From Candidatus Aminicenantes bacterium (GTDB lineage Bacteria; Acidobacteriota; Aminicenantia; UBA2199), in contig CAWHBG010000001.1 in NCBI GenBank assembly GCA_963827565.1, positions 448,682-512,681 of the forward strand: a stretch of DNA of 64,000 bases, given 5' to 3'. Positions 8,775 through 50,271 of the stretch are shown here, in pieces. Numbering within the stretch: the first letter of the stretch is position 1; each line of letters begins with the position of its first letter. The translations under genes were made by a program, and so were the position numbers. The notes below the pieces were generated by a model. That model was not told where the DNA came from. It saw nothing but the letters and a program-made list of their open reading frames with translations, and made no database searches.

Positions 8775-8779
8775 ACCGT

Positions 8780-11596: not shown

Positions 11597-11668
11597 TCTT
11601 TTTGCTGTCAATTCCTGATTGAATTAAGTTCCCTTTACAAAATCATATCTTTTTAATAGTATTTGGTT

Positions 11669-12433: not shown

Positions 12434-12454
12434 TCTATGTCTGAAGGTGACTTA

Positions 12455-13549: not shown

Positions 13550-13964
13550 TTCTTCATTTTACCCTATATTTGTTACGCAAATCAAAGTTTTTTGTTTTTA
13601 ATTAGTTTTAGGCTATTCTTAATACGGGATTTATTATAAAATATGATATGGAGTTTTAATGGGTGTTTTTCGGAGAATTGCAGGTAAAATAAAGGGAGAA
13701 AAATTGGTCGTTTCCCGTTTCAGGGAAAATGGTGCACTCTCTGATTGAACTTGCAAAAGATTTGAGAGATATCGGTGAGATCAACAGGTCCGTTTTCAAT
13801 AAATTACGCAGAAAAGGGGTTATTGATGAAGGAGGCGGAGGTACATATTTCCTGAATGATCAAGGTCTTATGAAATACCGGATGGATAGAGTAAAATGGG
13901 CGATGATTATATTGTTTTTTATACTGATTCTCATTTTAATTATTTATAGGGGTTAATAAGATTT

Positions 13965-14846
13965 ATGAAAAAGTTATATAAAGAATTTAAAAATTCACTG
14001 AAAGATACTATTGCAGAAGAGGTGGTAGATCTTTTCCTTTTCAGGCCGGTAAGTTTTGTAATATTAAAATTTCTGGTCAAGATGCCTGTAACACCCAACC
14101 AGATATCAGCTCTATCCCTTATCGCAGGCATTACCAGTGGTATATATTTTTCATTCGGTGACAAAAGAAGTTTTCTTTATGGGGGATTATTTTTAATGCT
14201 ATGTCATATATTCGATCTTCTTGACGGAATGGTGGCCAGAGTTAAGAAGAATGGTACACCATACGGAAGGATTATTGACGGATGGGTGGATTATATTACA
14301 ACAATAGCAATTTATCTCGGTTTTCTGCTGGGGTTAATAAAAAGCGGAATTGAACTCCCGTTCGGACCCTGGCCTCTTATGCTTGCATCTGCTGTTGCAG
14401 TGGCACTCCATAGTGGAGTTGTTGATTATTACAGACAACAATACCTTTCAAGTGCAACTGGCAGGAATAATACGATCAGTAAAGACTTCAGAAAATTTCA
14501 TAGAAGGTATAATCATATAAAGAAAAAAAAGGAAATTATTTTGAAAAAATTCTCTTAATGGTATATTTCGGATATACAAAAATCCAGATTACCGGAACAC
14601 GTGATAAATCCAAAACCCTTGTGAAGAAGAATACAGGTTCCGGAAAAATATTACTTATATTCTGGAATATGATCGGAGTCTCAACGCATCGGTTTTTTCT
14701 TATTCTTGCAGCTGTTTTCTATATGCCCGATGATATTCTTCTACTATATTCTTGTATTTTCAAATATTCTTCTTATTATTATTTATCCTCTCCAGTGGAG
14801 ATTAGATAAAAGAGAAGATTCATCATCAGAGAACAATCCTGAATAG
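13965..14846 (+). pseudogene. CDP-alcohol phosphatidyltransferase, reading frame broken at least twice
   Basis: The complete signature DG-MV-AR-VKKNGTPY-G-RII-D-GWV-D (DGx2ARx8Gx3Dx3D) is present. The frame changes inside an A8 run near 14525-14532 (track ORFs 13965..14558 and 14558..14809). It changes again near 14735, after which a third frame reads PMIFFYYILVFSNILLIIIYPLQWRLDKREDSSSENNPE* ending at 14846. Confidence 0.6.
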
Positions 14847-14904
14847 TCTTTACCTATCTCAGTTTTTTTCGTATAATAATTCTAAATAAGAATCGGAGGA
14901 TCAT

Positions 14905-15928
14905 ATGAGGAAAGCAATTTTTTTTATTCTGATCACTTTAATTTTAATAACGGGGTGCAATGTGAAAAAATATAAGGATGACGGATTATATGCGGAAATA
15001 AGGACAAACGAAGGGGATGATAGTAGTAAAACTTGATTTTGATAAAGTCCCCATGACTGTGGCAAATTTTGCAGGTCTTGCGGAAGGGAAAATTCCCAAT
15101 TCGATTCAGAGATGATAGGAGAACCTTATTATGATGGGTTAAAATTTCCATAGAGTCATTAAGGATTTCATGATCCAGGGGGGAGACCCTCAGGGGAATG
15201 GTACAGGGAATCCCGGATACAGTTTCCCGGATGAATTCCATACTGATCTTAAGCATGACACCAGCGGGATACTTTCAATGGCAAATGCCGGGCCCGGGCA
15301 CAAACGGCAGTCAATTCTTTATTACACATCTGGCAACACCTCATCTGGATAACAAACATTCAGTTTTTGGGAAAGTTTATAAAGGAATTGATGTAGTAAA
15401 TCAGATTGCACAGGGAGATATAATAGAAAGCATAAGAATAGTAAAAGTTGGAAAAGAGGCGGAAGCATTTGATGCGCCGGCAGTTTTTAAAAAAATGACA
15501 GAAGAGAAGAAAATTATCATATGAATCAGAATTGAAAAGAAAGAATGGAAGAAGAGAGAAAAAATTATTGAAGATAAATGGCCGGGAAGAGTGACCACGG
15601 AATCAGGATTATGTATATAGTCCTCGAACGAAGGGAAAGGGAGATAAACCTAAAGTCAGGTGTAATGATCTCTGCACATTATACCGGAACATTCCTTGAC
15701 GGAAGAAAATTTGACAGCTCGGTTGACAAAGGGGACACCTCTGGAATTTCCTGTAGGTGTCGGGAAAGTTATTAAAGGTTGGGATGAGGCTCTGCTTGAT
15801 ATGAGAAAAGGGGAAAAAAGGGTCCTGATCATCCCATCCATCTGGCATATGGTGAACGTGGGGCAGGCGGAGTAATTCCTCCCCATGCGACTCTTGTTTT
15901 TCAGGTAGAACTGGTAGATATTAAATAG
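14905..15928 (+). pseudogene. lipoprotein peptidyl-prolyl isomerase with cyclophilin and FKBP domains in one frame (dual-family PPIase), multiply frameshifted
   Basis: GGAGGA RBS, then MRKAIFFILITLILITGC (lipobox). Cyclophilin pieces appear in three frames: [12 protein letters not shown] / [24 protein letters not shown] / YYDGLKF / [30 protein letters not shown] / [26 protein letters not shown]. After the TGA at 15522-15524 the same frame continues: IRIEKKEWKKREKIIEDKWPGRVTTESGL. FKBP pieces follow: [19 protein letters not shown] / [33 protein letters not shown] / [28 protein letters not shown]. Confidence 0.7.
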
Positions 15929-16976
15929 AATATATATTTAATAACCGGATACGTTCAAGATTGTGCGCTGACAGTTTGTTAAAAATTTCAGATCCTTTTT
16001 TTGACAGATGAGAGTTGGTAAAACCATAACCTCCATCCAGAAACAAGGTGTCATCACCGAGATCAAATTTTTTTTCATAGTTGTAGTTGAGAATGGTGAT
16101 GTTTTTGAATTTTCTTCTTCAGATTTATTAAGATGAATTTTGAACATTGTCCCTTTGAAACTTGTTTGTTCTGAAAGTTCCGATGAATTCGGGTATTACG
16201 AATAAGTACAACGTTTAACCTTTTCATTCCTCAACTGTTCAAGCAACTGAAGGAAATAATCCCCTTCGATTCCAGGAGGTTTTGTAAACGCCGATCCTTT
16301 AAATTTTTTTGTTACACAGTGAGAACTTTATTATTTTTTAATTCTGACCTTTTTTTGTCCCGGTATAAGATTGAAAAATATTTATATCTCTCTAAAAGGT
16401 GATTGTCAGAATGGAGTGAAAAGTCCTGAGGATATCTTTAATTATGATATCGATCTTTCCTTTATTCTTCATAATAGAATCTCAGGATGCAAGATAATCA
16501 ATATTCGGTGCTTATGTCATTCCCTAATTAAGTTCTGCGAGTGCTTCCGGTGAAGAGTAAAGATTGTAGATGAAATAGTCGATTCCGTATAATATCACCT
16601 TCGGCTATCCGCCATTTTTTTTGTACAATTTGTAAAAATAATAATTATATTTAGGTCCGAATCCGGCAAAACTCCATTTAAATGGATTAAGCTTATCATG
16701 GTTTTGATCAGATTTGGGATGAATTCCTTCATATGTTCTTGATGAACCCATTATAAGAGAATTATATTTATTCTCTTTCAAGTGATCCCTCAGTCTGTTC
16801 TCAAGATCGTTTGAAGAATAGAAATGGTGATTATACTCAAGGATAATGTATGTAAAAATTCTGTCAAACAGAAATAAAGAAAGGAGGAATAGAAATATTA
16901 ATGATATTTTTCTGGTTATTTTATTCATTTTACTATTTACAATATTAAAATTCCTGCCATCTGTATTATATTGCAA
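15921..16976 (-). pseudogene. DUF1574/SGNH-like membrane-anchored protein, multiply frameshifted
   Basis: The intact N-terminal ORF 16605..16976 (TM anchor, LIMGSSRTYEGIHP) stops at KKNGG*. The next frame continues PKVILYGIDYFIYNLYSSPEALAELN. Further fragments follow: KPPGIEGDYFLQLLEQLRNEKVK and NITILNYNYEKKFDLGDDTLFLDGGYGFTNSHLSKKGSEIFNKLSAHNLERIRLL*. The family assignment is tentative. Confidence 0.4.
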
Positions 16977-32364: not shown

Positions 32365-33830
32365 TTAAAGGGAAGATTTAATGTTGTATTTTTTAAGAAG
32401 CGTGTATAATCTTGATCGGGAAAGGCCGGAAACCCGGCAGGCCTCATTGATGTTTCCACGCACGGATGAGATCAGTACCTTAAAATATTGCTCCTCCGAT
32501 TCGGATATTACAGATCGGTGAAGTTCTTTTAATTTTGGAAGGGGGACATTTTGAATGGTGGTGGATAACCCGTTTTTATTCCCGTTCAATAACTTCTTGT
32601 GAACCCCGTTTCGTGCCACTTGTATACGAATATGCGTTGGAAGGTGTTTCGGGTAGAGTATCGGCTCTTCTTTTGCGGCAATCAGGCATTTTTCAATCGC
32701 CTGGATCAGTTCACGGACATTCCCCGGCCATTTATAATTCTTCATTACCTCCCAGAATTCAGGAGAAAAACCTTTCTGCGACTATTCCGAATCGGTCACA
32801 CAGTGTCTTCATATAGTGAACTGTTAAGTTCTTTAATATCGTCACGGCATTCCCTTAATGGAGGCAATTCGATAACCAGCGACCGGAGCCGGAAAAACAG
32901 ATCTTCGCGAAATAGTCCCTGCTGGACCATGTCCTCCAGATTCCGGTTGGTAGCCACCACCAATCTGAAATCACTGGTGACTTCTTTTTTTCCGCCCACG
33001 GGGCGGAAGCGGTGTTCCTGGATAACCCGGAGAAAGTTTTTTTGCAATGCCAACGGCAGTTCGCCGATTTCATCAAGAAAAAGAGTCCCTCCATCTGCCT
33101 GTTTTATCAACCCGTCCTGGCTGATGTAGGCATTGGTGAAAGCGCCCTTCACATGTCCGAAAAGGATGTTTTCAATCAGTGTTTCTGGTAGTGCAGTACA
33201 ATCTACAATAACAAAATTCCCGGAGCCCCTTGAGCTGTTAAGATGAATTGCTCTGGCAAACAGTTCTTTTCCTGTACCGGTTTCACCGGTAATAATAACA
33301 TTGAATGTGCTCTGTGCTGCCTGGCTGAGCATCTCAAAACTTAGAGTTGAGACGGTCCGAACTACCGATAATATCCTTTCTCTGCAAAGTCGTGTCCAGG
33401 GTTACCTGAGGCCTTTTCGGTCCTGATATTCAAGAACACGGGTCAGGTGAAGCTTTATACTTTCAAGCGAGGCAGGCTTTTCGATGTAATCCCATGCGCC
33501 GTTTTGGATGGCGAGTTCAGCCTCATCAGGATCACCAAACCCTGTGAATATAATTATTTCAGGGGAATATCCGGTTGCTTTTATTTTCGGCATGATGTCC
33601 AACCCACTTCCATCGGGCATATTAGCATCAAGAAATATAACACTATATGATTCCGACCGGGCTTTACTCAGGCCATCTGCCAGTGTATGTGCGCAGGAAG
33701 ATTTTTGTCCCATTTTGGTAACGGCATTTGCGACCCAATCGCACATTGATTGATCATCATCAATAATCAGAACATTGATCATTACTAATTTTCCTGATTT
33801 AATTTTATCAAATTTAATTTTATTGCTCAA
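32365..33830 (-). pseudogene. sigma-54-dependent response regulator (NtrC family), split into three ORFs
   Basis: REC domain in 33402..33830 (VLIIDDD..., FLDANMPDGSG, IEKP). AAA+ sigma-54 interaction domain in 32796..33332 (GETGTGKELFARAIH, GGTLFLDEIGELP, FREDLFFRL). C-terminal part in 32365..32745 (WPGNVRELIQAIE, and the HTH ACRVSGLSRSRLYTLLKKYNI). The frame breaks lie near 33335-33400 and 32745-32830. Confidence 0.8.
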
Positions 33831-37686: not shown

Positions 37687-38913
37687 TCAAGAATGGCTTT
37701 TTACATTAATATTTTTTATATTCAGATCCTTGAATATTATCTCCACTGCAATCTTCGACATGAAAGTGAATAGGAGAAATCCAAGTGAAAATATCATTAC
37801 CGCTGTTCTTATCTCTATCATTGACGGCCTGTAGATGAAAAGTTGACCCAGTGTATCAGGAGAGTATCCCGGAGTAATAAGTGCAATACCCTTCTCAATG
37901 TAAACACCGATATAGATCAGGACAGCTCCCAGATTCAATGTGATAATATTTTTTCTGGTTTTCGGGATCAGGAATAATAAAAATGCAATAATACTGAAAA
38001 TTATTGACATCCACGCATATAAAACAAGATCGTTATGCCCTTTAACTCCCAGGAATAGATACTTCAGATGAACAACGTGATGTGTATTGGAGTAGACTTC
38101 CTTGAATATTTCACTGAAGAAGAGAAAAAGGTAGAGGAACATCGAGTATGCCATTAATTCAGCGATCTTCTCAATTGCTTCCTGCTTGATATCAAATTTA
38201 GTTGTTTTTTTAAGGATCTGGAAAAGGATAAGGAGAACTGCAGGTCCGGAGCAGAAAGCCGATGCAATAAATTTCGGGGCAAGCAGTGCACTGTTCCAAT
38301 AGGGCCTTGCAGCCATTCCGTTGAAAAGAAAAGCGGTGACGGTGTGGATAGAGATCGCCATCGGGATCGAGAGGAGTATCAGTTTATTGAATATCTTTTT
38401 ATTGTACTCTTTCTTAATAAAATGCATGTAAAGGAGATAGGTTACAATGAAAAGGTTCAGGAAAAAATAGAGGTTCAATACGATCGAATCCCATGCGAGG
38501 AGTGAGTCCGGAAAATTTAAAATCCCGATAAACGGGATCATATGCCAGAGCCGGAAGGGGCCTCCCATATCCACGATCACAAAGCCCAGGGCCATTATAA
38601 CTGCACTGACCGCCAATATTTCTCCGAAAATTGTTATCTCCTTGATCGGTTTCCAATGGTAAACATAGGCCGGAATTACCAGTAAGATGGCGGCTGCTGC
38701 AACACCTACAAGAAAAGTGAAGTTCCCGATATAAAATCCCCATGAAATAGAGTCGTTCATATTTGTAACAGCCAGGCCGCTTTTTAATTGCTCAAAATAG
38801 CCCAGGGCTCCCCATATTATGAGAAGAAGCAGGGAGGATATCCATATATAATAATATTTATTCCCTTTCAGGATCACTTTAAAAGACTCTTTTACAAAAT
38901 TAATAAATTTCAC
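37687..38913 (-). CDS. NrfD/PsrC-like polytopic quinol-interacting membrane subunit
   Basis: 408 aa with ~10 TM helices. It lies immediately downstream (13 nt) of the Tat-exported 4Fe-4S protein, the standard NrfCD/PsrBC/ActBC context. Confidence 0.75.
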   Translation of the reverse strand: MKFINFVKESFKVILKGNKYYYIWISSLLLLIIWGALGYFEQLKSGLAVTNMNDSISWGFYIGNFTFLVGVAAAAILLVIPAYVYHWKPIKEITIFGEILAVSAVIMALGFVIVDMGGPFRLWHMIPFIGILNFPDSLLAWDSIVLNLYFFLNLFIVTYLLYMHFIKKEYNKKIFNKLILLSIPMAISIHTVTAFLFNGMAARPYWNSALLAPKFIASAFCSGPAVLLILFQILKKTTKFDIKQEAIEKIAELMAYSMFLYLFLFFSEIFKEVYSNTHHVVHLKYLFLGVKGHNDLVLYAWMSIIFSIIAFLLFLIPKTRKNIITLNLGAVLIYIGVYIEKGIALITPGYSPDTLGQLFIYRPSMIEIRTAVMIFSLGFLLFTFMSKIAVEIIFKDLNIKNINVKSHS

Positions 38914-38925
38914 GTTTCACCTCGA

Positions 38926-39828
38926 CTAATAAAAATAATAGAACTTGGGCTGAGTGTTGAGCTCTTCTTTAAGGATCAGTACCCTCTTATGTTTCAGGAT
39001 ATATCTGATCTCACTTTCGGGGTCGAGAAGGTTTCCGAATTTTCGAGCCCCCACCGGACATATCTCGACACAGGAAGGGTAGAGACCCTCCCTCACTCTC
39101 TGAACACAAAAAGTACATTTTTCAACAACCCCTTTCATTCGTGGCCTGTTACCGTAATAATGGGTAACAGGATTGATCCCATCTTTATCAATATCCGGCT
39201 CTGCCCAATTAAAATGCCTTGCTCCATAAGGACATGCAGCCATACAGATCCTGCAGCCTATACACCAATTATAATCAACAACTACTATACCGTCCTTTTC
39301 CTTCCAGGTGGCGCCGACAGGGCATACCTTTGTACAGGGAGGGTTCTCACATTGCTGGCATGCTACAGGGAAATAGAAATGATCATCATCAGGAACAAGC
39401 TCACGTTCATAATCTGCGCGTGAATGAAAAAGGTCCACACCTTTGTCCTTTGCCATTTCCAGGACTGTTATCCAGTGGATCTGCGGATCTTTAGACTGAT
39501 TATTCTCTTCAACGCATGCATATACGCACCTCCTGCACCCGATGCATCTGGATATATCAAGCCCGTATCCAAATAATGTTTCATCGATCGGATCCTTCCC
39601 GGATACACTGAATTTCTTACCGTATTTTTCTGTATATTTTTTTTCAAGTCTTTCAATTATTTTATTTTTATCATTTTCATCCAGAGTTCTGAAGTTTTTC
39701 TGAAAAAATTCTTCCCACGAGGTTTCAGATCCGCATGCAGCAAGAGTAGCAAAGGTGGAGGCCAATGCGGTCTTTTTCAAGAATGTTCTTCTCGACTCTT
39801 TTTTTTCAACAGATTTTTTCTTGCTCAT
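38926..39828 (-). CDS. Tat-exported 4x[4Fe-4S] ferredoxin-type subunit (NrfC/HybA/PsrB-like)
   Basis: It has a twin-arginine signal (SRRTFLKKTALASTFATLAA) and four Cys clusters: CIGCRRCVYAC, CQQCENPPC..VCP, CIGCRICMAACP and CTFCVQRV...CVEICP. Confidence 0.85.
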   Translation of the reverse strand: MSKKKSVEKKESRRTFLKKTALASTFATLAACGSETSWEEFFQKNFRTLDENDKNKIIERLEKKYTEKYGKKFSVSGKDPIDETLFGYGLDISRCIGCRRCVYACVEENNQSKDPQIHWITVLEMAKDKGVDLFHSRADYERELVPDDDHFYFPVACQQCENPPCTKVCPVGATWKEKDGIVVVDYNWCIGCRICMAACPYGARHFNWAEPDIDKDGINPVTHYYGNRPRMKGVVEKCTFCVQRVREGLYPSCVEICPVGARKFGNLLDPESEIRYILKHKRVLILKEELNTQPKFYYFY

Positions 39829-39830
39829 AC

Positions 39831-40358
39831 TTATCTCCTACCTTTCATCGGGTCTGCGGGTGCAGGTTCCGGTTTCATTTTTTTATACTTTGGTGAATGG
39901 GGATTATGACAATGAGCACACAGGAGGTACTTTTTCTTACCGTTCCAGAATCCGGTTCTCTTTCCGTGTGCACCATTTTTCCATTCTCTTAATTTTGGCC
40001 CGTGGCACTGGCCGCATAATTTATATGATTCTGTGAAATCTATCAATTTTCCATTTGCAAGATGGAGTTTATCCCGGTTCTTCATATCGTGACAGTCGAG
40101 GCACCATCTGTTCTTCTCATCATGCTTCAGGATTATGTCATCATGCATTTCCTCAAGTACCCTTCTCTCAGGATTCGGTTCCATATCACCATGACATTCT
40201 GTGCATGGGAATATATCCTCACTGAACGGGGGAGGAGGGACCTGAATCAGTTCGCTCTTCTCGGTACTCTCCTGGCCGTATACTCCTTGGGGAACGGTGA
40301 TCAGGATTAAAACTAAAATAATTAAAATTAAAAAATCATACTTTATGATTGTTCTCAT
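39831..40358 (-). CDS. periplasmic tetraheme c-type cytochrome (NrfB/Cbc-type partner)
   Basis: 175 aa with a signal peptide and four CXXCH motifs (CTECH, CLDCH, CGQCH, CAHCH). Its stop lies 2 nt before the FeS gene start. Confidence 0.85.
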   Translation of the reverse strand: MRTIIKYDFLILIILVLILITVPQGVYGQESTEKSELIQVPPPPFSEDIFPCTECHGDMEPNPERRVLEEMHDDIILKHDEKNRWCLDCHDMKNRDKLHLANGKLIDFTESYKLCGQCHGPKLREWKNGAHGKRTGFWNGKKKYLLCAHCHNPHSPKYKKMKPEPAPADPMKGRR

Positions 40359-40531: not shown

Positions 40532-42346
40532 TCAGATCTTTTTCTGATTCAGGTAAAAATATGATCCTGTTATGATCATTAATTCGATAATTATATATAT
40601 TACAAGTGCAGTTGCAACATTGGCTGAGAATCCGTAATTATGGAGTCCTACTCCAAGCAGATTCACGCCGAACCATGCCAGAACGACTGTGATTATGCCA
40701 ACGATCGATCCTAGTGAAAAGCCCAGTTCTTTTATCATTTTACCCAGTTTTGCATGGAAAAGTATTGCAGACCACAATATTATCAGAAGTGCTCCATTCT
40801 CTTTTGGATCCCAGCCCCAGAACCTTCCCCATGACTGATCTGCCCAGATCCCACCGAGTACTGTACCAATGAAGGTAAATATCAGCCCGAATGCCTGAGT
40901 AGCATAGATTGATTGATATGTATCCCTGAGAATTTCTTTTTTCTTCCCTTTTTTAAATATAGATTGAATAAGATATAAGTGTCCCAGAACTCCGGAAATA
41001 ACTATACCTCCGTAACCGATCGTTATTGTAATAACATGTGTGGCAAGCCAGAAATTTGAATCCAGAACTGCAACAAGCATGCCCATTGTGTCTCCCTCAA
41101 GAGCATACCTTCCGGATATTATAAGCAGGACCAGTCCGGAGAGACTCCCCGTAAGGATGCCGATATTTTTCTTTTTGAACAACTCAAGAGCGAGTCCGAG
41201 AATTACTGTTATCCAGGCGGCAAATACGAATGTTTCGAAAAGATTTGTTACCGGTGGCCTGTTCCTTATTATCATTCTTGCGATCATTCCGTATGTATGC
41301 GGGAGCAGTCCGAGGATCAGGAGGAAATAGCTTGAGTAATAAAAAAGCCTTTTAAATTTTATATAGGAAAAAAGGAGCAGAAGCAGGGAAAATCCGTAGA
41401 AGAACTGAGATTTATAAAATGGATCGATCCTGTTGTACATGATCTCTATTTTTATCTTTTCAGGATCAGTCAGGTTTTTAGAAATGCCGTTTATAAATTT
41501 ATTAAATTCTATAACACTGGAATCAAATTCTGATTGATTACCATTCCTGAATGAAGAGACCATTTTATTTATAAGGGATATATGCGGTGCAGAGGATTCA
41601 TCAAACTTAAATGATCTGTTAACCGAGTCCCATGGGCTCTCCCAATTTTCTTCCCCTGAGCTCATGTCGGGGATGATATCAAGCTGCTGATCCTGATAAT
41701 AACCTGACCATTGATCCATTTTATGAGAAATATTCAGGAGTTTCTGTTCAGGTTCTGTCAATGATTCGACGTCTTTTTCCTTGATTGATTTAATCTCTTT
41801 GATCTTATGAAGAAGATCAAGGAAGGTTTTCCCTTCAAAATCCTGACTTGGAAAACAGAATTGAAAGGAGCCTGCAAGCTTATGATAAACATAGATTTTA
41901 TTGTATAGAACGATAAGCTCACTCTCAACAATACTTCTTTTGGATCCCTCGATCCTTGATGCTTTAATTGCCAATTCCCTCAGTTTTTGAACGTGGTCTG
42001 ATAATTGTCTGTAGCTGTATCTGCCTCTGCCCTTTCCTGCATCGGAACCAATGGCACTCAGGGCTTCAGGATTATTGATCAGAAAAACCTTGTCATCATA
42101 ACTTTTCTCAGGTGTAAATATCAGCCTTGATAACCATATTATTGCAGCTTGTTTTTCCAGTTTACTTTTTCCGGATAATTGTTTGAGTATATTCCGGGAA
42201 AATGTGTCGATCGGTTTTTTCCTGCCGTCTTCAAGGATAACAATTTTTTTGAACTCATCTAGATTTAAAGAGGAACCCTGAATCACTGCGGATGATATAA
42301 AGAATAAAGTAATCGTTAATATTAAAATTTTCAATTTGAATTTCAT
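40532..42346 (-). CDS. ccsA: System II cytochrome c biogenesis protein CcsA/ResC with long N-terminal periplasmic extension
   Basis: 604 aa. It has the Trp-rich heme-handling motif WGRFWGWDPKENGALLIILW with flanking His residues, about 8 C-terminal TM helices, and a ~300-aa secreted N-terminal region. Confidence 0.85.
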   Translation of the reverse strand: MKFKLKILILTITLFFISSAVIQGSSLNLDEFKKIVILEDGRKKPIDTFSRNILKQLSGKSKLEKQAAIIWLSRLIFTPEKSYDDKVFLINNPEALSAIGSDAGKGRGRYSYRQLSDHVQKLRELAIKASRIEGSKRSIVESELIVLYNKIYVYHKLAGSFQFCFPSQDFEGKTFLDLLHKIKEIKSIKEKDVESLTEPEQKLLNISHKMDQWSGYYQDQQLDIIPDMSSGEENWESPWDSVNRSFKFDESSAPHISLINKMVSSFRNGNQSEFDSSVIEFNKFINGISKNLTDPEKIKIEIMYNRIDPFYKSQFFYGFSLLLLLFSYIKFKRLFYYSSYFLLILGLLPHTYGMIARMIIRNRPPVTNLFETFVFAAWITVILGLALELFKKKNIGILTGSLSGLVLLIISGRYALEGDTMGMLVAVLDSNFWLATHVITITIGYGGIVISGVLGHLYLIQSIFKKGKKKEILRDTYQSIYATQAFGLIFTFIGTVLGGIWADQSWGRFWGWDPKENGALLIILWSAILFHAKLGKMIKELGFSLGSIVGIITVVLAWFGVNLLGVGLHNYGFSANVATALVIYIIIELMIITGSYFYLNQKKI

Positions 42347-42347
42347 A

Positions 42348-43484
42348 TTAGTTCCCTTTTTTTATCTCTGAGTTTTCTTTTCTCTTTCTGAACAACATTA
42401 ATATGAAATGGATCAATAAACCAAGAAAAACAACAATACTTGAAATATAAGGCAATAGCCTTCCCGAATTTTTCACAACTGCAAAAACAGAATATTCAAC
42501 TCCGGCAGGAGTGATATGATATCGGGATTGAAAGAATGTGTATTCTTTATATCTGAGAGGTTTGTTCATTGAAATTACAAGTTCTCTTTTAAGGTCTTCA
42601 TGCTTTATTTCGACTGTACTTTCATAACTTTTTACGATCTGTGAACCCGGATATTTTTTGATCCTAAAGTCTAAAAGCCCAACCTCGACCGGGAGTTTTT
42701 TTCTTAACTTCCTCAAAGAGAAATGATAATCACTTCCCAAAATCATAACATGAGTGGGTAATGTCTCTCCACCGTAAAGAATAATGTCCTTATTAATATC
42801 TTCAGAATATAGCATGATCCCGGGAACATTTTCTTCCGGTTCCGCCTCAGGCTGTCTCTCATCAATTGAGACGATCCCTGATGCATTCAGAACATTCTGT
42901 TTTGATGAACCCTCTTTATTTCTGAAAGCTGAAGCGTTCCGGAAAGATTTTTTAACATTAATCTTAATCGGAAAATCCGGAAATGAGATTGATTTATCCG
43001 GTTCTATATCTTTCAGATCAATGACAGAATAGTGCCTTACACCATCCTTGTCATTCCACACTGAGAGTTCCCATGCATGATAAGAATTTGACCACGAACT
43101 TTTTTCTCCCTCTTTCAGCATGAGGACGCTCTCTTCTGAAAAGAGGAAAGTAAAAAATCCCCCTATAAGAAGTATCAATATACCGATATGGGTAAGAATA
43201 TTACCTATGTTCTTAAATCTGAATCCGATCCTGAAGATCATGGAACTGATCAGGTTTAAAAACAGAACGGACATTGTAAGAGCCCCTCCAGGGATGGGAA
43301 TGAATCCCAAAGCAAGAAAAAACCATGAAGTGAAGAATTTTGCTTTTGCAGCATACAGGCCGTTATCGGTCTGATAAATCGTTCCCCATATAGTAAGAAC
43401 AGTTAGAACTATCAAACATATTACTGTCAATTTCAGCGAATAGCTGAATTTAATAAAGTTGTTTTTTTTTAGTTTGTTTAGCAT
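42348..43484 (-). CDS. ccsB: System II cytochrome c biogenesis protein ResB/CcsB
   Basis: 378 aa with the ResB-like topology and N-terminal pattern (SLKLTVICLIVLTVLTIWGTIYQ, NILTHIGILILLIGG, a large loop, then a C-terminal TM helix). It abuts ccsA. Confidence 0.7.
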   Translation of the reverse strand: MLNKLKKNNFIKFSYSLKLTVICLIVLTVLTIWGTIYQTDNGLYAAKAKFFTSWFFLALGFIPIPGGALTMSVLFLNLISSMIFRIGFRFKNIGNILTHIGILILLIGGFFTFLFSEESVLMLKEGEKSSWSNSYHAWELSVWNDKDGVRHYSVIDLKDIEPDKSISFPDFPIKINVKKSFRNASAFRNKEGSSKQNVLNASGIVSIDERQPEAEPEENVPGIMLYSEDINKDIILYGGETLPTHVMILGSDYHFSLRKLRKKLPVEVGLLDFRIKKYPGSQIVKSYESTVEIKHEDLKRELVISMNKPLRYKEYTFFQSRYHITPAGVEYSVFAVVKNSGRLLPYISSIVVFLGLLIHFILMLFRKRKENSEIKKGN

Positions 43485-44098
43485 TATTCTCCAGATTCGA
43501 TTGACTCTGATAATTTTAGTATCTTATCCCTATTATTCCTCAGAATTTCAGGATCTCCGGACATCTTAATGAAAAGTGTTTTTCCGGGGAAAGTGATCAT
43601 AGAAACAATTATAGAGAGATCAGACTCTTTACCGGTTATTTGTGTAAAATCAATAAAAATGCCTTCGTTATTACTTCTTGTTTTGAATTTTTTCTGTTTT
43701 GAGATAAATTCATCAATTTCAGATTCTGAAGGTTCCTTGTCTGCTATACTGGCAGACCACATCTGAACATTTGCCTTCAATCCTCCGGCATCCCCAGATA
43801 GGGGGATGATTGTGCACACGGCTTCTTTTTCGCCTGATTTGATAGAATAGGTCGCCAATCTTAGCTTGGATTCGGTTTTGATGCTTATCCAGCCGTCCGG
43901 AGTATCCCATTTAAGGTTTGTTTTAGTTGCCCCGGGGACATTCATACCGTGAGCATGTGTTGTTATTTCTGGTATATCCTTCTCAGCTATCTCCTCTTTA
44001 AATGAACGTACCTCATTCTTTTTCCCGCAGGAGATTGAAAAAATCACAAATGTTAATACTAATATAAAAATAACCGGTAAAGAGTACTTTGATCTCAT
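43484..44098 (-). CDS. hypothetical lipoprotein inside the cytochrome maturation operon
   Basis: 204 aa with a lipobox (FSISCGKK). Its TAA overlaps the ccsB ATG (TAATG). I recognise no family and there is no CXXC thioredoxin motif. Confidence 0.45.
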   Translation of the reverse strand: MRSKYSLPVIFILVLTFVIFSISCGKKNEVRSFKEEIAEKDIPEITTHAHGMNVPGATKTNLKWDTPDGWISIKTESKLRLATYSIKSGEKEAVCTIIPLSGDAGGLKANVQMWSASIADKEPSESEIDEFISKQKKFKTRSNNEGIFIDFTQITGKESDLSIIVSMITFPGKTLFIKMSGDPEILRNNRDKILKLSESIESGE

Positions 44099-44111: not shown

Positions 44112-44597
44112 TTACTTTCTGTAATTATGGTCTATCTTTTTGAAATACTCATCCTTTTTAAAAGGTTTTGCGGTATCACTTTTTTTCGGATCATGACAAG
44201 TAACACAAACCGCTTCAGTCGGCTCAATAAGTCCGGCTGCCATGGCTTTGGCTTTATCTTTCATGATGCTCATTTTTTTGTAGTCTGAACCCGGACCATG
44301 ACATGATTCACAGCCAACGCCCTCAAAGTTTACATTGTTAGGATCATCCAGCTTGTAACCGCCCTTGTTAAATGCTGTGGTATGACACTCAAGACACGCA
44401 GGATCTTTTTCCTTGCCGTCCTTCTTAAGACTTTCAAAAGCTTTTGAATGCTTTCTCTCCATCCATTTTTCAAACACATTACCTTTCTTTTCACCCTTGT
44501 GGCACATCTTACATTTCTTCGTACCGACATAATCAGCCGAAGTGACAAGAGAGAAAAGGAACAGAATCGCGATAAAAATCATTAACGTTTTTTTCAT
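44112..44597 (-). CDS. tetraheme cytochrome c (c554-like family)
   Basis: 161 aa with a signal peptide and four motifs (CKMCH, CLECH, CESCH, CVTCH). The layout YVGTKKCKMCH...W..KHSKAF...CLECH...GCESCHGPGS resembles the cytochrome c554 / c-prime family. Confidence 0.8.
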   Translation of the reverse strand: MKKTLMIFIAILFLFSLVTSADYVGTKKCKMCHKGEKKGNVFEKWMERKHSKAFESLKKDGKEKDPACLECHTTAFNKGGYKLDDPNNVNFEGVGCESCHGPGSDYKKMSIMKDKAKAMAAGLIEPTEAVCVTCHDPKKSDTAKPFKKDEYFKKIDHNYRK

Positions 44598-44737: not shown

Positions 44738-46774
44738 TTAATGGAGCAGTTCAGATATCAGTTTTTCATACAATTCAGGATTATGTATTCCCTTGCTGCC
44801 GTCTTTTAAAAGTAGTTTATATAAATCATATACCCGGTTTCCGCTTTTGAGTTTCTCTTCTTCAATTTTTTTCTTCAGTTTATTCATCAACTCTGATGTT
44901 GAGTTAATCCACTCAACATGCATTTCTTCATAGTTCTCTTCATGACAATTGGAACATATTTCCTTTGTGGGCCTTACTATTTCATTACTCTCATTAACAT
45001 GACAATCGTTACATTCCACATCGTTTACCATAACATTCGGAATATTGAGAGTCAGGTGTTCCAGTTTCCCCTCATATATATTTTTCTGGATCTGATGACA
45101 ATCTGCGCATTCCTGTTTGCTCTCTTTTTTATGATGACAATCCATGCAATCATTTTTTCTGATTATCAATTGTCCATGGACAGCTTTATTCGAGTGACAA
45201 TTTCTGCAAGTTAATTTTTTTCCGTCAAGGTGTTTGTAATGAGGGAAATCCCATCCGAATATCTTCGCCGTTCTCAATTCGATCCCGGAATGGCAGTTAG
45301 AACATTCACCGGGAACAATATTTGTTTCCCGGTCAAATCTTGGAATGGATATCTGGTCAACTTTGTCCCCCAGACTTTTTCGAAGCATTTTAAATGACTG
45401 GTCAAGCAGCCTGTTTGCAAATGAAATATTGTGTATAGAATTTCCGAATTTAACCATTTTAAAATTAAACTCAGCATCTTCATATAACTTTTCAGAGCTT
45501 TTCCCTTTTTTTGTGTCTCTTATCGTTTTGATCTGCTTTTTAATAATTGGAAATATCTTTTCAAGCTGTGATATCTTTTTGTCAGTCTGGTTCTTCCAAT
45601 TCATTAGAATTTTATTGTATCCCTTCCCATGACATGGCTCACATGACTGGGAATTAGCTATCAGGGTGTCTCCCTTCTCCTCGAATGAAACAGAAAAATT
45701 ATGATGCTGATGACAGGCTTTACAATTGAGTCCCGATTCGAACATTGAACTGGGGTGATCCGGGACATTTTTCCCCCCTTTACCGGTAAACATCATCAAT
45801 TGAAGTTTATGCGGATCTGTGTGACATGAACTGCATTCGGGAATGATCTCTTCTGTCCTCGCTATCGATTTGTGCTGAATCTCAGTATGACATTGAATAC
45901 ATTCGATCTTATGATCAGTTATATGGTTCTTGTGCATGAGAACAGTATCATCGTACTGGTCTATTTTCTCCTGTTCTGCATGGCAATTATTACATCTGTT
46001 CCTCGGAACGGCTCCGTCACCGACGATCATTTCCCCATGACATTTATAACAACTTACTTTTCTTGCGAGAATGTCAGTATGATCATATTTTATCTCTTCA
46101 CTGTTATTCTCTCCTTTAACCGGAGGCGTATGGCATTTTGTACATTTTGAAATAACCTCCATTTCACTTTTAATACCTTTAAAATGGCAAAGGAAACATG
46201 ATGTTTCGGTTACTGACAGATGTGAACCCTGTACGATCTGTGAATGGCAGCTTGTACATCTTAATTGTTTTTCACGTCTCAGTCCCTCAAGATGAGGAGC
46301 ATGATCGAATATGATATTTTTTTTGAACTTTACTTTACCCTGGAGATTTCTTGTTTCATGACAGCCGCTTCTGAGGCAGCTTGCATCCGATATCTCTGCC
46401 CAGGGTTTGCTCTTTTTATAAACTCCGGTGAAATAGTTCACTACCATCGATGCTGCAGTTAATTTGCCTTTTAATTTATTTTTCAATCCGGGGGGAAAAT
46501 GGCAGTCTGTGCAAGTAACATCTTTATGAGAAGAATTAGCCCAGCTTTCATAATAGGGCTGCATGAAATGGCATGTAGAACAGAAACCCGGCCGGGATGT
46601 AATTTCCAGTGAAATTGATCCGAGAATGAGAAAGATTGCAGTGGTAACTGTTATGGCAACTATCAGCCGCTTCCAACCCGGTCCCCAGACGAGTTTATGA
46701 AGTGAAACAATGTTTCTCCTGATCAGCCGGAATATTTTAGCAATGCCTTTAAATGGTTTCAATAAGTTTTTCAT
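44738..46774 (-). CDS. NapC/NirT-type membrane-anchored multiheme cytochrome c (17 CXXCH + 1 CX4CH)
   Basis: ATG 46774 (AGAGGG RBS) is preferred over the TTG at 46795. An N-terminal TM helix is followed by the NapC/NirT signature FCSTCHFMQPYYESWANSSHKDVTCTDCHFPPG. I counted 17 CXXCH motifs plus CLRSGCH. Two NrfA/ONR-like helical segments are present (NSIHNISFANRLL, SKGIHNPELYEKLI). Confidence 0.85.
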   Translation of the reverse strand: MKNLLKPFKGIAKIFRLIRRNIVSLHKLVWGPGWKRLIVAITVTTAIFLILGSISLEITSRPGFCSTCHFMQPYYESWANSSHKDVTCTDCHFPPGLKNKLKGKLTAASMVVNYFTGVYKKSKPWAEISDASCLRSGCHETRNLQGKVKFKKNIIFDHAPHLEGLRREKQLRCTSCHSQIVQGSHLSVTETSCFLCHFKGIKSEMEVISKCTKCHTPPVKGENNSEEIKYDHTDILARKVSCYKCHGEMIVGDGAVPRNRCNNCHAEQEKIDQYDDTVLMHKNHITDHKIECIQCHTEIQHKSIARTEEIIPECSSCHTDPHKLQLMMFTGKGGKNVPDHPSSMFESGLNCKACHQHHNFSVSFEEKGDTLIANSQSCEPCHGKGYNKILMNWKNQTDKKISQLEKIFPIIKKQIKTIRDTKKGKSSEKLYEDAEFNFKMVKFGNSIHNISFANRLLDQSFKMLRKSLGDKVDQISIPRFDRETNIVPGECSNCHSGIELRTAKIFGWDFPHYKHLDGKKLTCRNCHSNKAVHGQLIIRKNDCMDCHHKKESKQECADCHQIQKNIYEGKLEHLTLNIPNVMVNDVECNDCHVNESNEIVRPTKEICSNCHEENYEEMHVEWINSTSELMNKLKKKIEEEKLKSGNRVYDLYKLLLKDGSKGIHNPELYEKLISELLH

Positions 46775-47063
46775 GTTGCCCTCTTTTTTGATCAAAAATG
46801 TTTATTTCTTTTGATTATAGGAATAGAAAAAAAAAAGTAAAATTAAATAAGACCGAAAGGGTTAAATAAAAACATTTATTTTTTATTGAAATGTGACTTT
46901 TAATATGTTAAATTTTTTTTAAACAATTTAAATCATTGCAATTTGAAAATGATTATATAAATTGTTTGTGTCAATTCCTTGAGCGAAGGGATGTTTAATG
47001 ATTAATTCAGGTTAGTTTAAATTAAAGATTTAAATATAATTCAGGTTAAAACCTGAAAGATTA

Positions 47064-49265
47064 TTGAAGGAGTTGGCATTGATTAAAAAAGCAAACTTAA
47101 TTTTATTATCATTTTTTCTTCTATTAATCCCACTTTGTTTGATCTCTGCGGATAACAATGAATGCATGGAATGCCATTCGGATGAAAGCCTCACTACAAT
47201 GAGGGGTGGAAGAGTTATTAAATTGTTTGTTGATATAAAAGTTCATAATAAATCAATTCATAAAGATCAGGAATGTGTCAATTGCCATGAAGAAGCGGAT
47301 GTTGAAGAATTCCCTCACGAAGAGAGGCTTACACCTGTTAACTGCGGAAATTGTCATGACAAACCCCAGGAAGAGTTTGATCGGGGTATTCACGGGAAAT
47401 TTCTGAAGACAAATCATTTGTATGCGCCAACATGTACTGAATGTCACGGAAAACATAATGTTGCGAGTGTCACTGATCCTGAATCGCCATCGTTTAGAAT
47501 GAATGTCCCTTATCTCTGTGGCAAATGTCACAGGGAGGGAGCTCCTGTTGCCAGGATCTATAAAATAAATGAAAGGAACATTATAGAAAATTACAGCCAG
47601 AGTATTCATGGGGAAGGATTATTCAAGAAGGGATTGTCAGTGTCAGCGACATGTGTTGATTGCCATAGCAGCCATAAAGTTCTTCCCCATACCGATCGCG
47701 AATCATCAATTCATCCGAATAACATTGCTTCAACTTGTATGCAGTGTCATACCAGGATAGAAGATGTTCATAAACAGGTTATCGAGAACAAAAAATGGGA
47801 GAAGAGCAAGGGGGCTATTCCTGCCTGTACTGACTGTCATCTTCCTCACAAAGTAAGAAAAGAATCAATTGTACTCCGGGTTTCTGATAAGGCATGTCTG
47901 AAATGTCATGAAGATGAAAATCTAAGTATGATGAAGGATGGCGAAAAGGTGTCACTCCATATAAATAAAGAAGACATTAAATCTTCGGTTCACATGGAAG
48001 TGACATGTGTAAAATGCCATTCTGATGTAAATCCGATGCTGAATAGGCCCTGTCAGACCGCTAATGAAGTTGACTGTACCAGCTGTCATATCAGTACAGG
48101 CGAAGAGTATAACAATTCCGGCCATGGAATGGCAAAAAAAAACATGGCGGAAGATGCACCGGATTGCGTAACCTGTCATGGCACCCACACGATCCAATCC
48201 CATCGTGATGATTCATCTCCTATCTATAAAACAAATATCCCTTCACTCTGTGGTGATTGTCATAAAAAGGACTCTAAAGTTAAACGGGTACATGAGTTAT
48301 CTCAAAAGGAAGTTATAAATAATTATTCACATAGTATACATGGGCAGAAGCTGACCGGGAAGGGATTTCTGGTCAGTGCATCCTGCACGGATTGTCACAA
48401 TAAACATTATATCCTCAGCAGCAAAGATGAGAAATCTTCTACTAACATCAAAAATGTTCAGGCTACATGTTCAACCTGCCATAGAGGCATATACAACGAT
48501 TACATAAAAAGTATCCATTTTACTTCCGAGCAATACAGGAAAGAGGACAGGCCAACCTGTATCACTTGTCATTCCGCACATACGATAAAGGATATTACCA
48601 AGGATCAGTTCATGACGGAGGTGACCGACCATTGCGGAGAATGTCACAAAAAATTGTCTGAAACATATCTCGATACGGTTCACGGAAAAACCTATCAGCT
48701 TGGTTATTTAAAATCAGCAAAGTGTTCAGACTGTCACAATGCCCACCTGATCCTCCCTACCAATGATCCCGATTCAAGTGTCGGTATGAACAATATTGTG
48801 AATACCTGCCAGAAGTGTCATGAAGATGCAAATGAGAGGTTTACTGGATATCTGACACATGCAACCCATCATGACAGGAAAAAATTTCCGATCCTCTATT
48901 ACACATACTGGGCGATGACATTACTTCTTATAAGTGTTTTTACATTTTTCGGAATTCATACTTTATTGTGGTTCCCTAGATCATACAAGAATATGAAGTT
49001 CAGAAAGAAACAGGCTCACGGACATGATGAGGTTTATGTTCAGCGGTTTGAATTATCTCAACGGCTGACCCATTTGTTCGTCATCCTCAGTTTTCTTGCC
49101 CTTGCATTTACCGGCCTGATCCTGAAATTTTCCTTCATGCCATGGGCGGCATTTTTTGCGAGTATAATAGGGGGGGTCCATAACGCAGGTTTATACACAG
49201 GTTTGCGGCCACTTGTAACCTTCGGTTATTTTTTCTTCCACGTATTTCAATTTGATAAGCCTTAA
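47064..49265 (+). CDS. 19-heme cytochrome c fused to the first helices of a b-type cytochrome membrane domain
   Basis: 733 aa with a signal peptide. I counted 19 CXXCH motifs, then TM helices (YWAMTLLLISVFTFFGIHTLLWF; LTHLFVILSFLALAFTGLILKF). The start codon is uncertain: TTG 47064, or the TTG ~15 nt later placed after GAAGGAG. The ORF ends prematurely and continues in other frames; see 49377..49859. Confidence 0.85.
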   Translation: MKELALIKKANLILLSFFLLLIPLCLISADNNECMECHSDESLTTMRGGRVIKLFVDIKVHNKSIHKDQECVNCHEEADVEEFPHEERLTPVNCGNCHDKPQEEFDRGIHGKFLKTNHLYAPTCTECHGKHNVASVTDPESPSFRMNVPYLCGKCHREGAPVARIYKINERNIIENYSQSIHGEGLFKKGLSVSATCVDCHSSHKVLPHTDRESSIHPNNIASTCMQCHTRIEDVHKQVIENKKWEKSKGAIPACTDCHLPHKVRKESIVLRVSDKACLKCHEDENLSMMKDGEKVSLHINKEDIKSSVHMEVTCVKCHSDVNPMLNRPCQTANEVDCTSCHISTGEEYNNSGHGMAKKNMAEDAPDCVTCHGTHTIQSHRDDSSPIYKTNIPSLCGDCHKKDSKVKRVHELSQKEVINNYSHSIHGQKLTGKGFLVSASCTDCHNKHYILSSKDEKSSTNIKNVQATCSTCHRGIYNDYIKSIHFTSEQYRKEDRPTCITCHSAHTIKDITKDQFMTEVTDHCGECHKKLSETYLDTVHGKTYQLGYLKSAKCSDCHNAHLILPTNDPDSSVGMNNIVNTCQKCHEDANERFTGYLTHATHHDRKKFPILYYTYWAMTLLLISVFTFFGIHTLLWFPRSYKNMKFRKKQAHGHDEVYVQRFELSQRLTHLFVILSFLALAFTGLILKFSFMPWAAFFASIIGGVHNAGLYTGLRPLVTFGYFFFHVFQFDKP

Positions 49266-49376
49266 AATAAAAACGAAAACACCGGTCTTCAAATTCATTT
49301 TCAGTAAGAATGGAATGATGTTCAACATAAAAGGACCTGAAGGATTTCTGGGGATCACTGAAGTGGTTTCTAGGAC

Positions 49377-49859
49377 TTGGGAAAAGGTCCGGAGTACGGT
49401 AAATGGACATATTGGGAAAAATTTGATTACTTTGCAGTGTTCTGGGGTGTTGCTGTTATCGGTATATCAGGGCTTATCTTGTGGTTCCCGGAATTTTTCA
49501 CAAAGATCATTCCCGGATGGGCAATAAATGTTGCAATGATAATCCATTCTGATGAAGCACTTCTTGCGATAGGATTTATATTTACAATACATTTTTTCAA
49601 TACCCATCTGAGGCCGGAGTCCTTCCCGATGGATAAAGTCATATTTACCGGACTTGTTCCTCTTCAAGAATACAAGAATGACAGACCGGAAGAGTATAAG
49701 AGGCTGGTGGAATCAGGTGAACTTGAGAGTAAACTGGTGAAACATAATGCATTTAAGAAATATAATAGATTCGTTACCTTTATGGGAATGACTTTTCTTA
49801 TTATCGGACTGGCTTTAACAGCACTTATCATATATTCAATGCTTTTCGGATATAAATAG
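49377..49859 (+). CDS. C-terminal part of the b-type cytochrome domain (FdnI/HydC-like), detached from 47064..49265 by frameshifts
   Basis: It reads GKWTYWEKFDYFAVFWGVAVIGISGLILWFPEFF...IIHSDEALLAIGFIFTIHFFNTHLRPESFPMD. Between 49190 and 49385 the reading frame hops: FFFHV / ISLKIKTKT..FIFSKNGMMFNIK / DFWGSLKWFLGLGK / GPEYGKWTYWEKF. Confidence 0.65.
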   Translation: MGKGPEYGKWTYWEKFDYFAVFWGVAVIGISGLILWFPEFFTKIIPGWAINVAMIIHSDEALLAIGFIFTIHFFNTHLRPESFPMDKVIFTGLVPLQEYKNDRPEEYKRLVESGELESKLVKHNAFKKYNRFVTFMGMTFLIIGLALTALIIYSMLFGYK

Positions 49860-49947: not shown

Positions 49948-50271
49948 TTATTCGTCTCTTAAAAATTCTGTTTTATTTTCAGAAAGTTTAAGGACAAATT
50001 TTGACATATTTTCAATAATCTTCAATAAACTGATATCTGCAAGTGAATAGAATGCAAAAACTCCGTCCTTTGTTTTATTAAGAACGCCCATTTTAAAAAG
50101 GGCATTTAGATGATTAGAGAGACTGCTTGTGGATAATTGTGTTTTTTCCTGAAGTTCTGATACATTCATCTTGCTTTTGCCGATGAGGTCAATTATCAGA
50201 AGTCTTGAAGGTTTTGTGATGACCTGACATACCATTGAATATTGTTCGTAGAATTTAATATTGCGTGCCAT
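49948..50271 (-). CDS. ArsR/SmtB-family transcriptional regulator
   Basis: 107 aa. The wHTH pattern is PSRLLIIDLIGKSKMNVSELQEKTQLSTSSLSNHLNALFKMGVL. Confidence 0.8.
   Translation of the reverse strand: MARNIKFYEQYSMVCQVITKPSRLLIIDLIGKSKMNVSELQEKTQLSTSSLSNHLNALFKMGVLNKTKDGVFAFYSLADISLLKIIENMSKFVLKLSENKTEFLRDE

Follow-up and report, generated by a model that had tools for sequence, protein, structure and literature searches.

A putative menaquinol dehydrogenase of the NapC/NirT/NrfH type with a fused 14-heme extension in Candidatus Aminicenantes and FCB-group phyla

A 2018 survey recognized three families of inner-membrane quinol oxidase for extracellular electron transfer: CymA, ImcH and CbcL (PMC6295460). 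CymA of Shewanella and ImcH of Geobacter are c-type quinol oxidases anchored in the membrane, and both pass electrons to periplasmic cytochromes. CymA has four to five hemes and occurs only in Proteobacteria, and ImcH, which coexists with CbcL, has three transmembrane (TM) helices, a CX3CH first motif and a NapC/NirT-like region extended by extra hemes to a total of 6–10 (PMC6295460). NrfH, the menaquinol dehydrogenase of the NrfHA nitrite reductase of Desulfovibrio vulgaris (PDB 2j7a and 2vr0), is a tetraheme protein of ~160 amino acids, anchored by one N-terminal TM helix, that docks a separate NrfA. A 64,000-nucleotide stretch of Candidatus Aminicenantes contig CAWHBG010000001.1 (referred to here as the window) encodes a 678-amino-acid cytochrome in which a head resembling NrfH is followed, on the same polypeptide, by 14 further hemes. 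This protein is probably a menaquinol dehydrogenase of the inner membrane, of NapC/NirT/NrfH type, that carries its periplasmic electron-transfer partner in fused form, as a permanently attached heme wire.

The gene occupies positions 44738–46774 of the minus strand and comprises 678 codons followed by a stop; a plus-strand reading of the same interval was rejected, its translation being riddled with stops. The Shine-Dalgarno sequence AAGAGGG lies 5' of the ATG at 46774, and an in-frame TTG at 46795 is an unlikely start because the nearest homologs are likewise 678 amino acids long. Scanning for promoters and terminators near the gene gave a promoter-like site at 46841–46814 and otherwise nothing decisive. 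The protein contains 17 CXXCH motifs (at residues 65, 88, 173, 193, 211, 242, 261, 292, 314, 351, 378, 491, 523, 543, 556, 588 and 607) and a single CX4CH (CLRSGCH, at residue 133), exactly the count given in the original prediction, and these motifs account for all 36 of its cysteines. Shuffled versions of the protein held a mean of 0.11 and a maximum of two CXXCH motifs; the observed number is far above chance.

The same architecture is widespread. A word-indexed search returned 2827 relatives, and the best 120 are mostly 650–700 amino acids long and labelled only as ‘NapC/NirT family cytochrome c’, ‘cytochrome c3 family protein’ or ‘hypothetical’. An exhaustive search gave 2288 clusters at 50% identity, 404 of them at E <= 1e-30, and in a scan limited to one genome for each species 567 matching stretches were confirmed, which places the family in at least 567 species-level genomes. 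Its hosts include Aminicenantes, Neomarinimicrobiota, Gemmatimonadales, Zixiibacteriota, Glassbacteria, Kryptoniota, Ignavibacteria, Rhodothermales, Latescibacterota and Calditrichota, among them a metagenome-assembled genome (MAG) assigned to Caldithrix abyssi; the relatives nearest to the window protein are from Acidobacteriota/Aminicenantes MAGs (83%). All 18 motifs, including the CX4CH, were invariant in an alignment of 40 sequences that reached down to 42% identity, and each of the 84 non-duplicate loci that were fetched encodes the full-length protein with exactly 17 CXXCH motifs and the one CX4CH.

The head was placed by family-model scores and by alignment. The Pfam NapC/NirT model PF03264 scored 46.4 bits (cut-off 24.1) on residues 37–181, which cover profile positions 11–168 of 174. 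The best NCBIfam model was that of NrfH (TIGR03153; 55.6 bits, residues 39–180, model positions 4–136 of 138), followed by TorC (37.5 bits) and NapC/NirT (28.2). The four head hemes, at C65 (CXXCHXM), C88, C133 (the CX4CH) and C173, all fall inside the region matched by PF03264. An ungapped alignment with NrfH (2j7a_C) equates C65, C68 and H69 with the heme 1 motif, M71 with Met49, H83 with His61 and K104 with Lys82; the heme 1 motif of the window protein reads CSTCHFM, and M71 (40 of 40 sequences), H83 and K104 are invariant among the aligned relatives. In NrfH the quinol-interacting heme is five-coordinate and takes the methionine of CXXCHXM as its ligand (PMC8840924), and Lys82, the equivalent of CymA Lys91, holds a quinol analogue and is required for function (PMC2762525). 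Hydropathy analysis located one TM helix, at residues ~36–58, and no other hydrophobic segment, and the N-terminal 35 residues contain nine Lys or Arg and no Asp or Glu. The single helix and the basic N-terminus therefore indicate, by the positive-inside rule, a cytoplasmic N-terminus and an external heme domain. Judged from these alignments, the head is a complete four-heme module of the NapC/NirT/NrfH superfamily with NrfH as its nearest relative, in keeping with the NapC/NirT-type start first recognized from the TM helix and the CSTCH, SSH and CTDCH elements.

The protein nonetheless cannot be equated with any of the described quinol dehydrogenases. It differs from NrfH proper in its length, its 18 hemes, its score below the equivalog cut-off and the absence of an nrfA gene nearby; its heme 3–4 spacing is also longer, and Asp89 of NrfH is not conserved. 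In NrfHA a lysine of the docked NrfA ligates heme 4; here 14 hemes are fused on, and heme 3 is of the CX4CH form. Identity with ImcH was rejected since there is one TM helix and no CX3CH, the first motif being a canonical CXXCH with the NrfH-type methionine, and identity with CymA was rejected since that protein has four to five hemes and ~190 residues; the 18 hemes and the NrfA-family-type tails described below set the protein apart from both. TorC/DorC, the pentaheme members of NapC/NirT, likewise combine a tetraheme head with an extra heme domain on one polypeptide, and the weak TorC match covers residues 38–115. TorC/DorC add a single heme, however, and are dedicated to trimethylamine N-oxide and dimethyl sulfoxide reductases, and the score was far under the TorC cut-off of 455.

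Behind the head, the extension comprises three linker hemes, five hemes in a first repeat unit and six in a second. The original prediction of a long multiheme extension therefore stands, with 14 hemes in place of the 16 additional sites envisaged; the CX4CH that had been counted among the added sites is heme 3 of the head. The linker overlaps a Pfam Cytochrome_C7 match (residues 155–216), and H185, H232 and M249 in this region are invariant. The two repeat units are an internal duplication: profile-profile comparison of sub-alignments for residues 259–461 and 489–677 gave an hhalign probability of 99.8% (E 1.7e-28). The comparison pairs the hemes C261 with C491, C292 with C523, C314 with C543, C351 with C588 and C378 with C607, and pairs the potential ligands H281/H284 with H512/H515, H301 with H533 and M344 with M582. 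In the tails, Y386 corresponds to Y615, W393 to W622 and H448-N449 to H664-N665, and both His-Asn pairs are invariant in the 40 relatives. The additional heme of unit 2 (C556-H560) has no counterpart in unit 1, where the same position holds only an invariant histidine, H322. Complete relatives of ~450 amino acids (P0203; also P0217, P0220, P0233, P0235, P0245 and P0251) end after unit 1 and by alignment would carry 12 hemes. Unit 2 is therefore a separable module, and the 18-heme form differs from the short form by one added, duplicated module.

The closest solved structures to the extension are those of soluble or cell-wall cytochromes. Searches with the family profile found OcwA of Thermincola potens (6i5b; E 1.6e-16) and OmhA of Carboxydothermus ferrireducens (6qvm; 6e-14), then NrfH (3e-10), ActA of alternative complex III (4e-8) and MccA (5.5e-4). 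The OcwA match spans its last five heme motifs and its three-helix tail and aligns these motifs with the five of unit 1; the matches of unit 2 were to OcwA 412–496, OmhA 585–678 and MccA 609–694. OcwA and OmhA share with both units the five-heme block followed by a helical tail, the G-x-HN motif and the methionine before the fourth motif (M344, M582). They differ in having no quinol head and in being proteins of Gram-positive bacteria. The three-helix tail of OcwA was called a hallmark of the NrfA family by its authors (PMC6703420), and on the profile evidence a long-helix tail of this type is present twice, each time after the heme core.

In a sub-model of residues 255–678 built with 96 sequences (mean predicted local distance difference test score, pLDDT, 82.5), the long helices lie where the original prediction had placed two segments resembling NrfA-type C-termini (pLDDT 85–97), and the models put the tail helices of unit 1 at residues 386–474. 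The two tails are thus upheld by the duplication and by the OcwA, OmhA and MccA matches; the octaheme modules of the octaheme nitrite reductase (ONR) kind that had been expected are replaced by units of five and six hemes. Foldseek searches with the sub-model ranked OcwA first, followed by MccA, octaheme nitrite reductase and NrfA (best E 9.5e-3, TM-score ~0.26).

Whether the extension conducts electrons or also converts a substrate depends on the axial ligands of its hemes. Outside the heme motifs, 17 histidines (83, 158, 161, 185, 232, 281, 284, 288, 301, 322, 358, 448, 512, 515, 533, 548 and 664) are conserved, and four methionines (71, 249, 344 and 582) are invariant or nearly so. Candidate ligands are H83, H158, H161, H185, H232 and M249 for the six hemes of head and linker after heme 1; H281, H284, H301, H448 and M344 for the five of unit 1; and H512, H515, H533, H548, H664 and M582 for the six of unit 2. 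By this count the conserved His and Met would suffice to six-coordinate every heme except the quinol heme. The invariant pairs H281/H284 and H512/H515 form c7-type HxxH motifs, and OcwA, which has two open hemes, lacks His at the aligned positions. This difference fits an open heme 5 in OcwA and a closed equivalent heme here. From such comparisons it is likely that the extension acts as a wire.

In the mechanism proposed here, menaquinol would be oxidized at the NrfH-type heme 1 at the periplasmic face, releasing its protons to the periplasm, and the electrons would run along the 18-heme chain to an acceptor in the periplasm or the outer membrane. The chain itself would convert no substrate. 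Candidate acceptors are the four-heme c554-like cytochrome encoded next to the gene, and porin-cytochrome or secreted cytochromes encoded elsewhere. In Aminicenantes and the Fibrobacterota-Chlorobiota-Bacteroidota (FCB) group of phyla, the protein would likely serve to respire acceptors in the periplasm or outside the cell, or to take up electrons. The data show the identities of the domains, the topology signals, the conservation and the gene linkage; the direction of electron flow in this scheme, like the acceptor and the lack of catalysis, is what we infer.

The gene is also linked to a second type of quinone-interacting cytochrome. Divergently oriented from it in the window is a CbcL-like gene in which a 19-heme cytochrome c domain is joined to an FdnI/HydC-type cytochrome b. 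The CbcL/MtrH/MtoC family has the same construction, a multiheme c domain on a dihaem cytochrome b of this type, with 3–23 heme motifs (PMC6295460). The two neighbours have different membrane anchors and quinone sites and are genetically coupled. Among the 84 non-duplicate loci, an FdnI-type cytochrome b homolog was found within the flanks of 56, a cytochrome b fused to at least three hemes in 42, and such a fusion within 600 bp of the 18-heme gene in 32, with gaps that are often 1–10 bp; a c554-like homolog lay within the flanks of 44. These counts come from a single-sequence search and are lower bounds. In Marinimicrobia, a recurrent cassette consists of a 17-heme cytochrome b fusion, the 18-heme gene and an 11-heme cytochrome b fusion, mostly separated by less than 30 bases (L003, positions 7489–16288, and L007, L022, L025, L029, L031, L067 and L076). 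In Gemmatimonadota and others, the gene immediately upstream encodes a cytochrome b fusion. The linkage is strong and not universal. In the MAG assigned to Caldithrix abyssi (L033, 10001–15308), the gene is convergent with a Rieske-type (bc-type) cytochrome b and a 429-amino-acid multiheme cytochrome, and no FdnI-type fusion is present; the genome paper of this organism states that it lacks NapC and does not mention a gene of this kind. The 18-heme protein would work alongside the linked CbcL-like fusions, either as parallel gates to the quinone pool with different potentials or directions, as for ImcH and CbcL in Geobacter, or within one assembly.

Table 1. Features of the 18-heme cytochrome gene and its surroundings in the window (aa, amino acids)
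Feature	Positions	Strand	Basis
Complete coding sequence, 18-heme membrane-anchored cytochrome, 678 aa	44738..46774	-	Homolog length, Shine-Dalgarno
Head, residues 1-185: basic cytoplasmic N-terminus, TM helix, four hemes	46220..46774	-	Pfam, NCBIfam, NrfH alignment, hydropathy and charge, invariance
Three-heme linker, cytochrome c7/c3 type, residues 186-258 (C193, C211, C242)	46001..46219	-	Pfam Cytochrome_C7, secondary hhalign matches
Repeat unit 1, residues 259-484: five hemes (C261, C292, C314, C351, C378) and helical tail with H448-N449	45323..46000	-	hhalign, profile alignment, models
Repeat unit 2, residues 485-678: six hemes (C491, C523, C543, C556, C588, C607) and helical tail with H664-N665	44741..45322	-	hhalign, profile matches, Foldseek
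Divergent CbcL-like neighbour: 19-heme cytochrome c and FdnI/HydC-type cytochrome b	47064..49859	+	Pfam, NCBIfam, intact 925-aa ortholog in locus L001
ArsR-family regulator adjoining the cytochrome b fusion gene	49948..50271	-	Conserved in L001
Four-heme c554-like periplasmic cytochrome, directly downstream of the 18-heme gene	44112..44597	-	Pfam Cytochrome_C554
Predicted lipoprotein, 204 aa, family unassigned	43484..44098	-	Present in L001, L008, L009 and L011, the closest relatives only
System II cytochrome c maturation: ResB/CcsB (42348-43484) and CcsA (40532-42346)	40532..43484	-	Pfam ResB, Cytochrom_C_asm
Third quinone-interacting module: four-heme cytochrome c (39831-40358), 4Fe-4S protein (38926-39828), NrfD-type membrane subunit (37687-38913)	37687..40358	-	Pfam

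The remaining genes around the 18-heme cytochrome (Table 1) are dominated by electron transfer and cytochrome maturation, and the c554-like cytochrome is a candidate electron acceptor or shuttle. Locus L001, from an 81%-identical relative, has the same layout as the window, including the trio of cytochrome c, 4Fe-4S protein and NrfD-type subunit; its cytochrome cluster additionally holds an intact dCache sensor kinase and a sigma-54 response regulator, which the window lacks. A 178-amino-acid open reading frame (ORF) in the window (32796–33332, minus strand) encodes the AAA+ core (GETGTGKE...) of a sigma-54 activator and nothing more, and is apparently truncated at both ends. Two tandem genes of ~940 codons at 5925–11596 (plus strand) each encode an N-terminal Ser/Thr protein kinase domain.

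At the edge of the window, a porin-cytochrome-like trio lies at 2–2164 on the minus strand. It consists of a six-heme cytochrome (1580–2164), a 459-amino-acid protein (265–1641) that has no Pfam match and whose sequence resembles an outer-membrane beta-barrel, and a cytochrome (2–277) that runs off the window start. The trio may be an outer-membrane conduit of the same electron path. In L003, the cassette is followed by a 666-amino-acid cytochrome with a type IX secretion system (T9SS) sorting tail and by a NiFe uptake hydrogenase; both this arrangement and the trio in the window were counted in favour of a setting in extracellular electron transfer.

Several observations weigh against the proposal of a quinol-fed wire. 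Every NCBIfam score of the head fell below its curated cut-off (for NrfH, an equivalog cut-off of 134.2), and quinol oxidation is therefore argued from the conserved residues and not from a family score. The full-length AlphaFold2 model was poor (pLDDT 68, predicted template modelling score 0.39, residues 121–208 below 50); with it, Foldseek recovered the right families from the PDB at no E below 0.1, and neither model gave a match at E <= 0.001. Given these weak matches, the structural argument is made from sequence profiles, not from fold matches. OcwA has enough His for all of its hemes and still has two that are five-coordinate, along with slow nitrite reduction (PMC6703420), and ligand counting therefore does not exclude an active site; the invariant H322, moreover, aligns with the first His of an EVHHPH stretch in OcwA. 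Where at least 5 kb of sequence flanked the gene on each side, about a quarter of the loci lacked a cytochrome b within 10 kb. In the window itself the CbcL-like partner looks broken, the 18-heme gene being intact: the partner is split into ORFs of 733 and 160 amino acids (47064–49265 and 49377–49859) by five single-base indels within ~190 bp (49190–49375), relative to an 86%-identical ortholog, with a stop at 49263–49265. The L001, L008 and L011 orthologs show no such break (925–927 amino acids), and the indels are either sequencing errors confined to this spot or the mark of a gene that has recently become a pseudogene. Finally, the function of the family members is deduced by sequence comparison, and the terminal acceptor stands at the level of candidates.

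An alternative is that the protein is a quinol-dependent reductase in its own right, a one-polypeptide analogue of NrfH–NrfA in which one of the NrfA-family-type modules keeps an open five-coordinate heme, as in hemes 2 and 5 of OcwA, for nitrite, hydroxylamine, nitric oxide, a sulfur oxyanion or a soluble metal in the periplasm. The most plausible site would be in unit 1: its motifs align with OcwA hemes 5–9, which correspond to NrfA hemes 1–5, so that C261 takes the position of the active-site heme with H322 above it. H322 is invariant despite having no heme of its own, and the EVHHPH stretch to which it aligns is probably the distal His-His motif of OcwA (HH 380/381; PMC6703420). OcwA is itself a precedent for a CXXCH heme that is open and reduces nitrite with ample His nearby, and TvNiR, ONR, MccA and NrfA were among the Foldseek matches.

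The details of the same site argue the other way. Invariant H281/H284 follow C261 as an HxxH without counterpart in OcwA and provide an obvious sixth ligand for this heme, and the position of H322 is occupied in unit 2 by the proximal His of the extra heme, which argues for a role in packing over one in catalysis. A motif search of the protein found no CXXCK; there is no Cys outside the heme motifs and hence no MccA-type copper site, and the spans that would read as MccA-type CX15CH merely bridge adjacent canonical motifs. The Pfam NrfA model (Cytochrom_C552, PF02335) had no match in the protein at E <= 0.01, nor was a Pfam NrfA match found in its scanned neighbours, which encode cytochromes, maturation proteins and quinone modules and no substrate-specific nitrogen or sulfur genes. 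The ONR-like catalytic module of the original prediction thus finds no support, a fused reductase is considered unlikely, and a catalytic site anywhere in the protein appears improbable.

The linkage data could also be read as a redox loop or supercomplex, in which the NrfH-type protein joins the neighbouring multiheme-cytochrome b fusion or fusions in one assembly that builds a proton gradient. Cytochromes b of the FdnI/HydC type are electrogenic, unlike quinol oxidation of the NrfH type. The cytochrome b arm would carry electrons through the membrane, either to or from a cytoplasmic-side quinone site, and the electroneutral NrfH arm would exchange quinol at the periplasmic face, with electrons entering by one heme wire and leaving by the other. 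The operon-like spacing, the three-gene Marinimicrobia cassette, the recurrence of the linkage across several phyla and the similar heme counts (18 against 17–19) are in line with such an assembly. The divergent transcription in the window's own lineage is not, and the loci without a nearby cytochrome b and the interrupted partner count against it as well. A fusion of the two proteins was sought among the long relatives, and none was seen: their N-terminal extensions are not cytochrome b. A redox loop is accordingly given only a slender chance. If it were correct, the two proteins would be two arms of one inner-membrane machine spanning the periplasm, energy would be conserved directly from extracellular or periplasmic electron exchange, and the assembly would be a type of respiratory module not described before and common to Marinimicrobia, Aminicenantes, Gemmatimonadota and other FCB-group phyla.

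That the gene is an artefact, an assembly chimera or a mis-called ORF merging a NapC/NirT gene with separate cytochrome genes, was a concern of the original prediction. The clustered indels in the neighbouring gene show that the assembly is not free of errors, yet no other sign of a chimera was found, and the same architecture of 650–700 amino acids, with identical number and order of motifs, recurs on independent contigs from NCBI, JGI, ENA and Logan. The chance of such an artefact is accordingly negligible, and a quinol dehydrogenase with a fused heme wire remains the preferred interpretation.

Some relatives depart from the common form at the N-terminus. A polytopic membrane domain of ~870 amino acids (P0173, P0232 and P0243) or ~320 amino acids (P0236 and P0263) precedes the NrfH-type head in five of them, and these extensions had no Pfam match. 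In the membrane-anchored cytochrome P0167 (604 amino acids), the cytoplasmic N-terminus carries a fused response-regulator receiver domain; the protein could be a variant for redox signalling or a fusion introduced by gene calling.

Literature searches found no paper that names or tests the 18-heme family. Its component parts are all of known kinds, and the growth of multiheme cytochromes from modules has been well documented; in databases the protein already carries the NapC/NirT family label. What was not found described before is the specific architecture, its strict conservation, its spread over FCB-group phyla and Aminicenantes, and its coupling to cytochrome b fusions. The protein is a clear case of the growth of a multiheme cytochrome by fusion and internal duplication, in which an NrfA-family-type module appears to have been reused as a wire, with one copy carrying an extra heme where OcwA probably has its distal-pocket His.

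CymA, ImcH and CbcL are the usual genome markers for extracellular electron transfer, and the protein described here defines another family. Its 18 motifs are unchanged down to 37% identity. The host lineages are abundant and for the most part uncultured, live in anoxic sediments, aquifers and oxygen-minimum zones, and use respiratory acceptors that are poorly known. If quinol does feed a wire of this kind, many Marinimicrobia, Aminicenantes, Zixibacteria and their relatives would reach periplasmic or extracellular acceptors by a route that was not found in earlier descriptions, such as the genome paper of Caldithrix abyssi.

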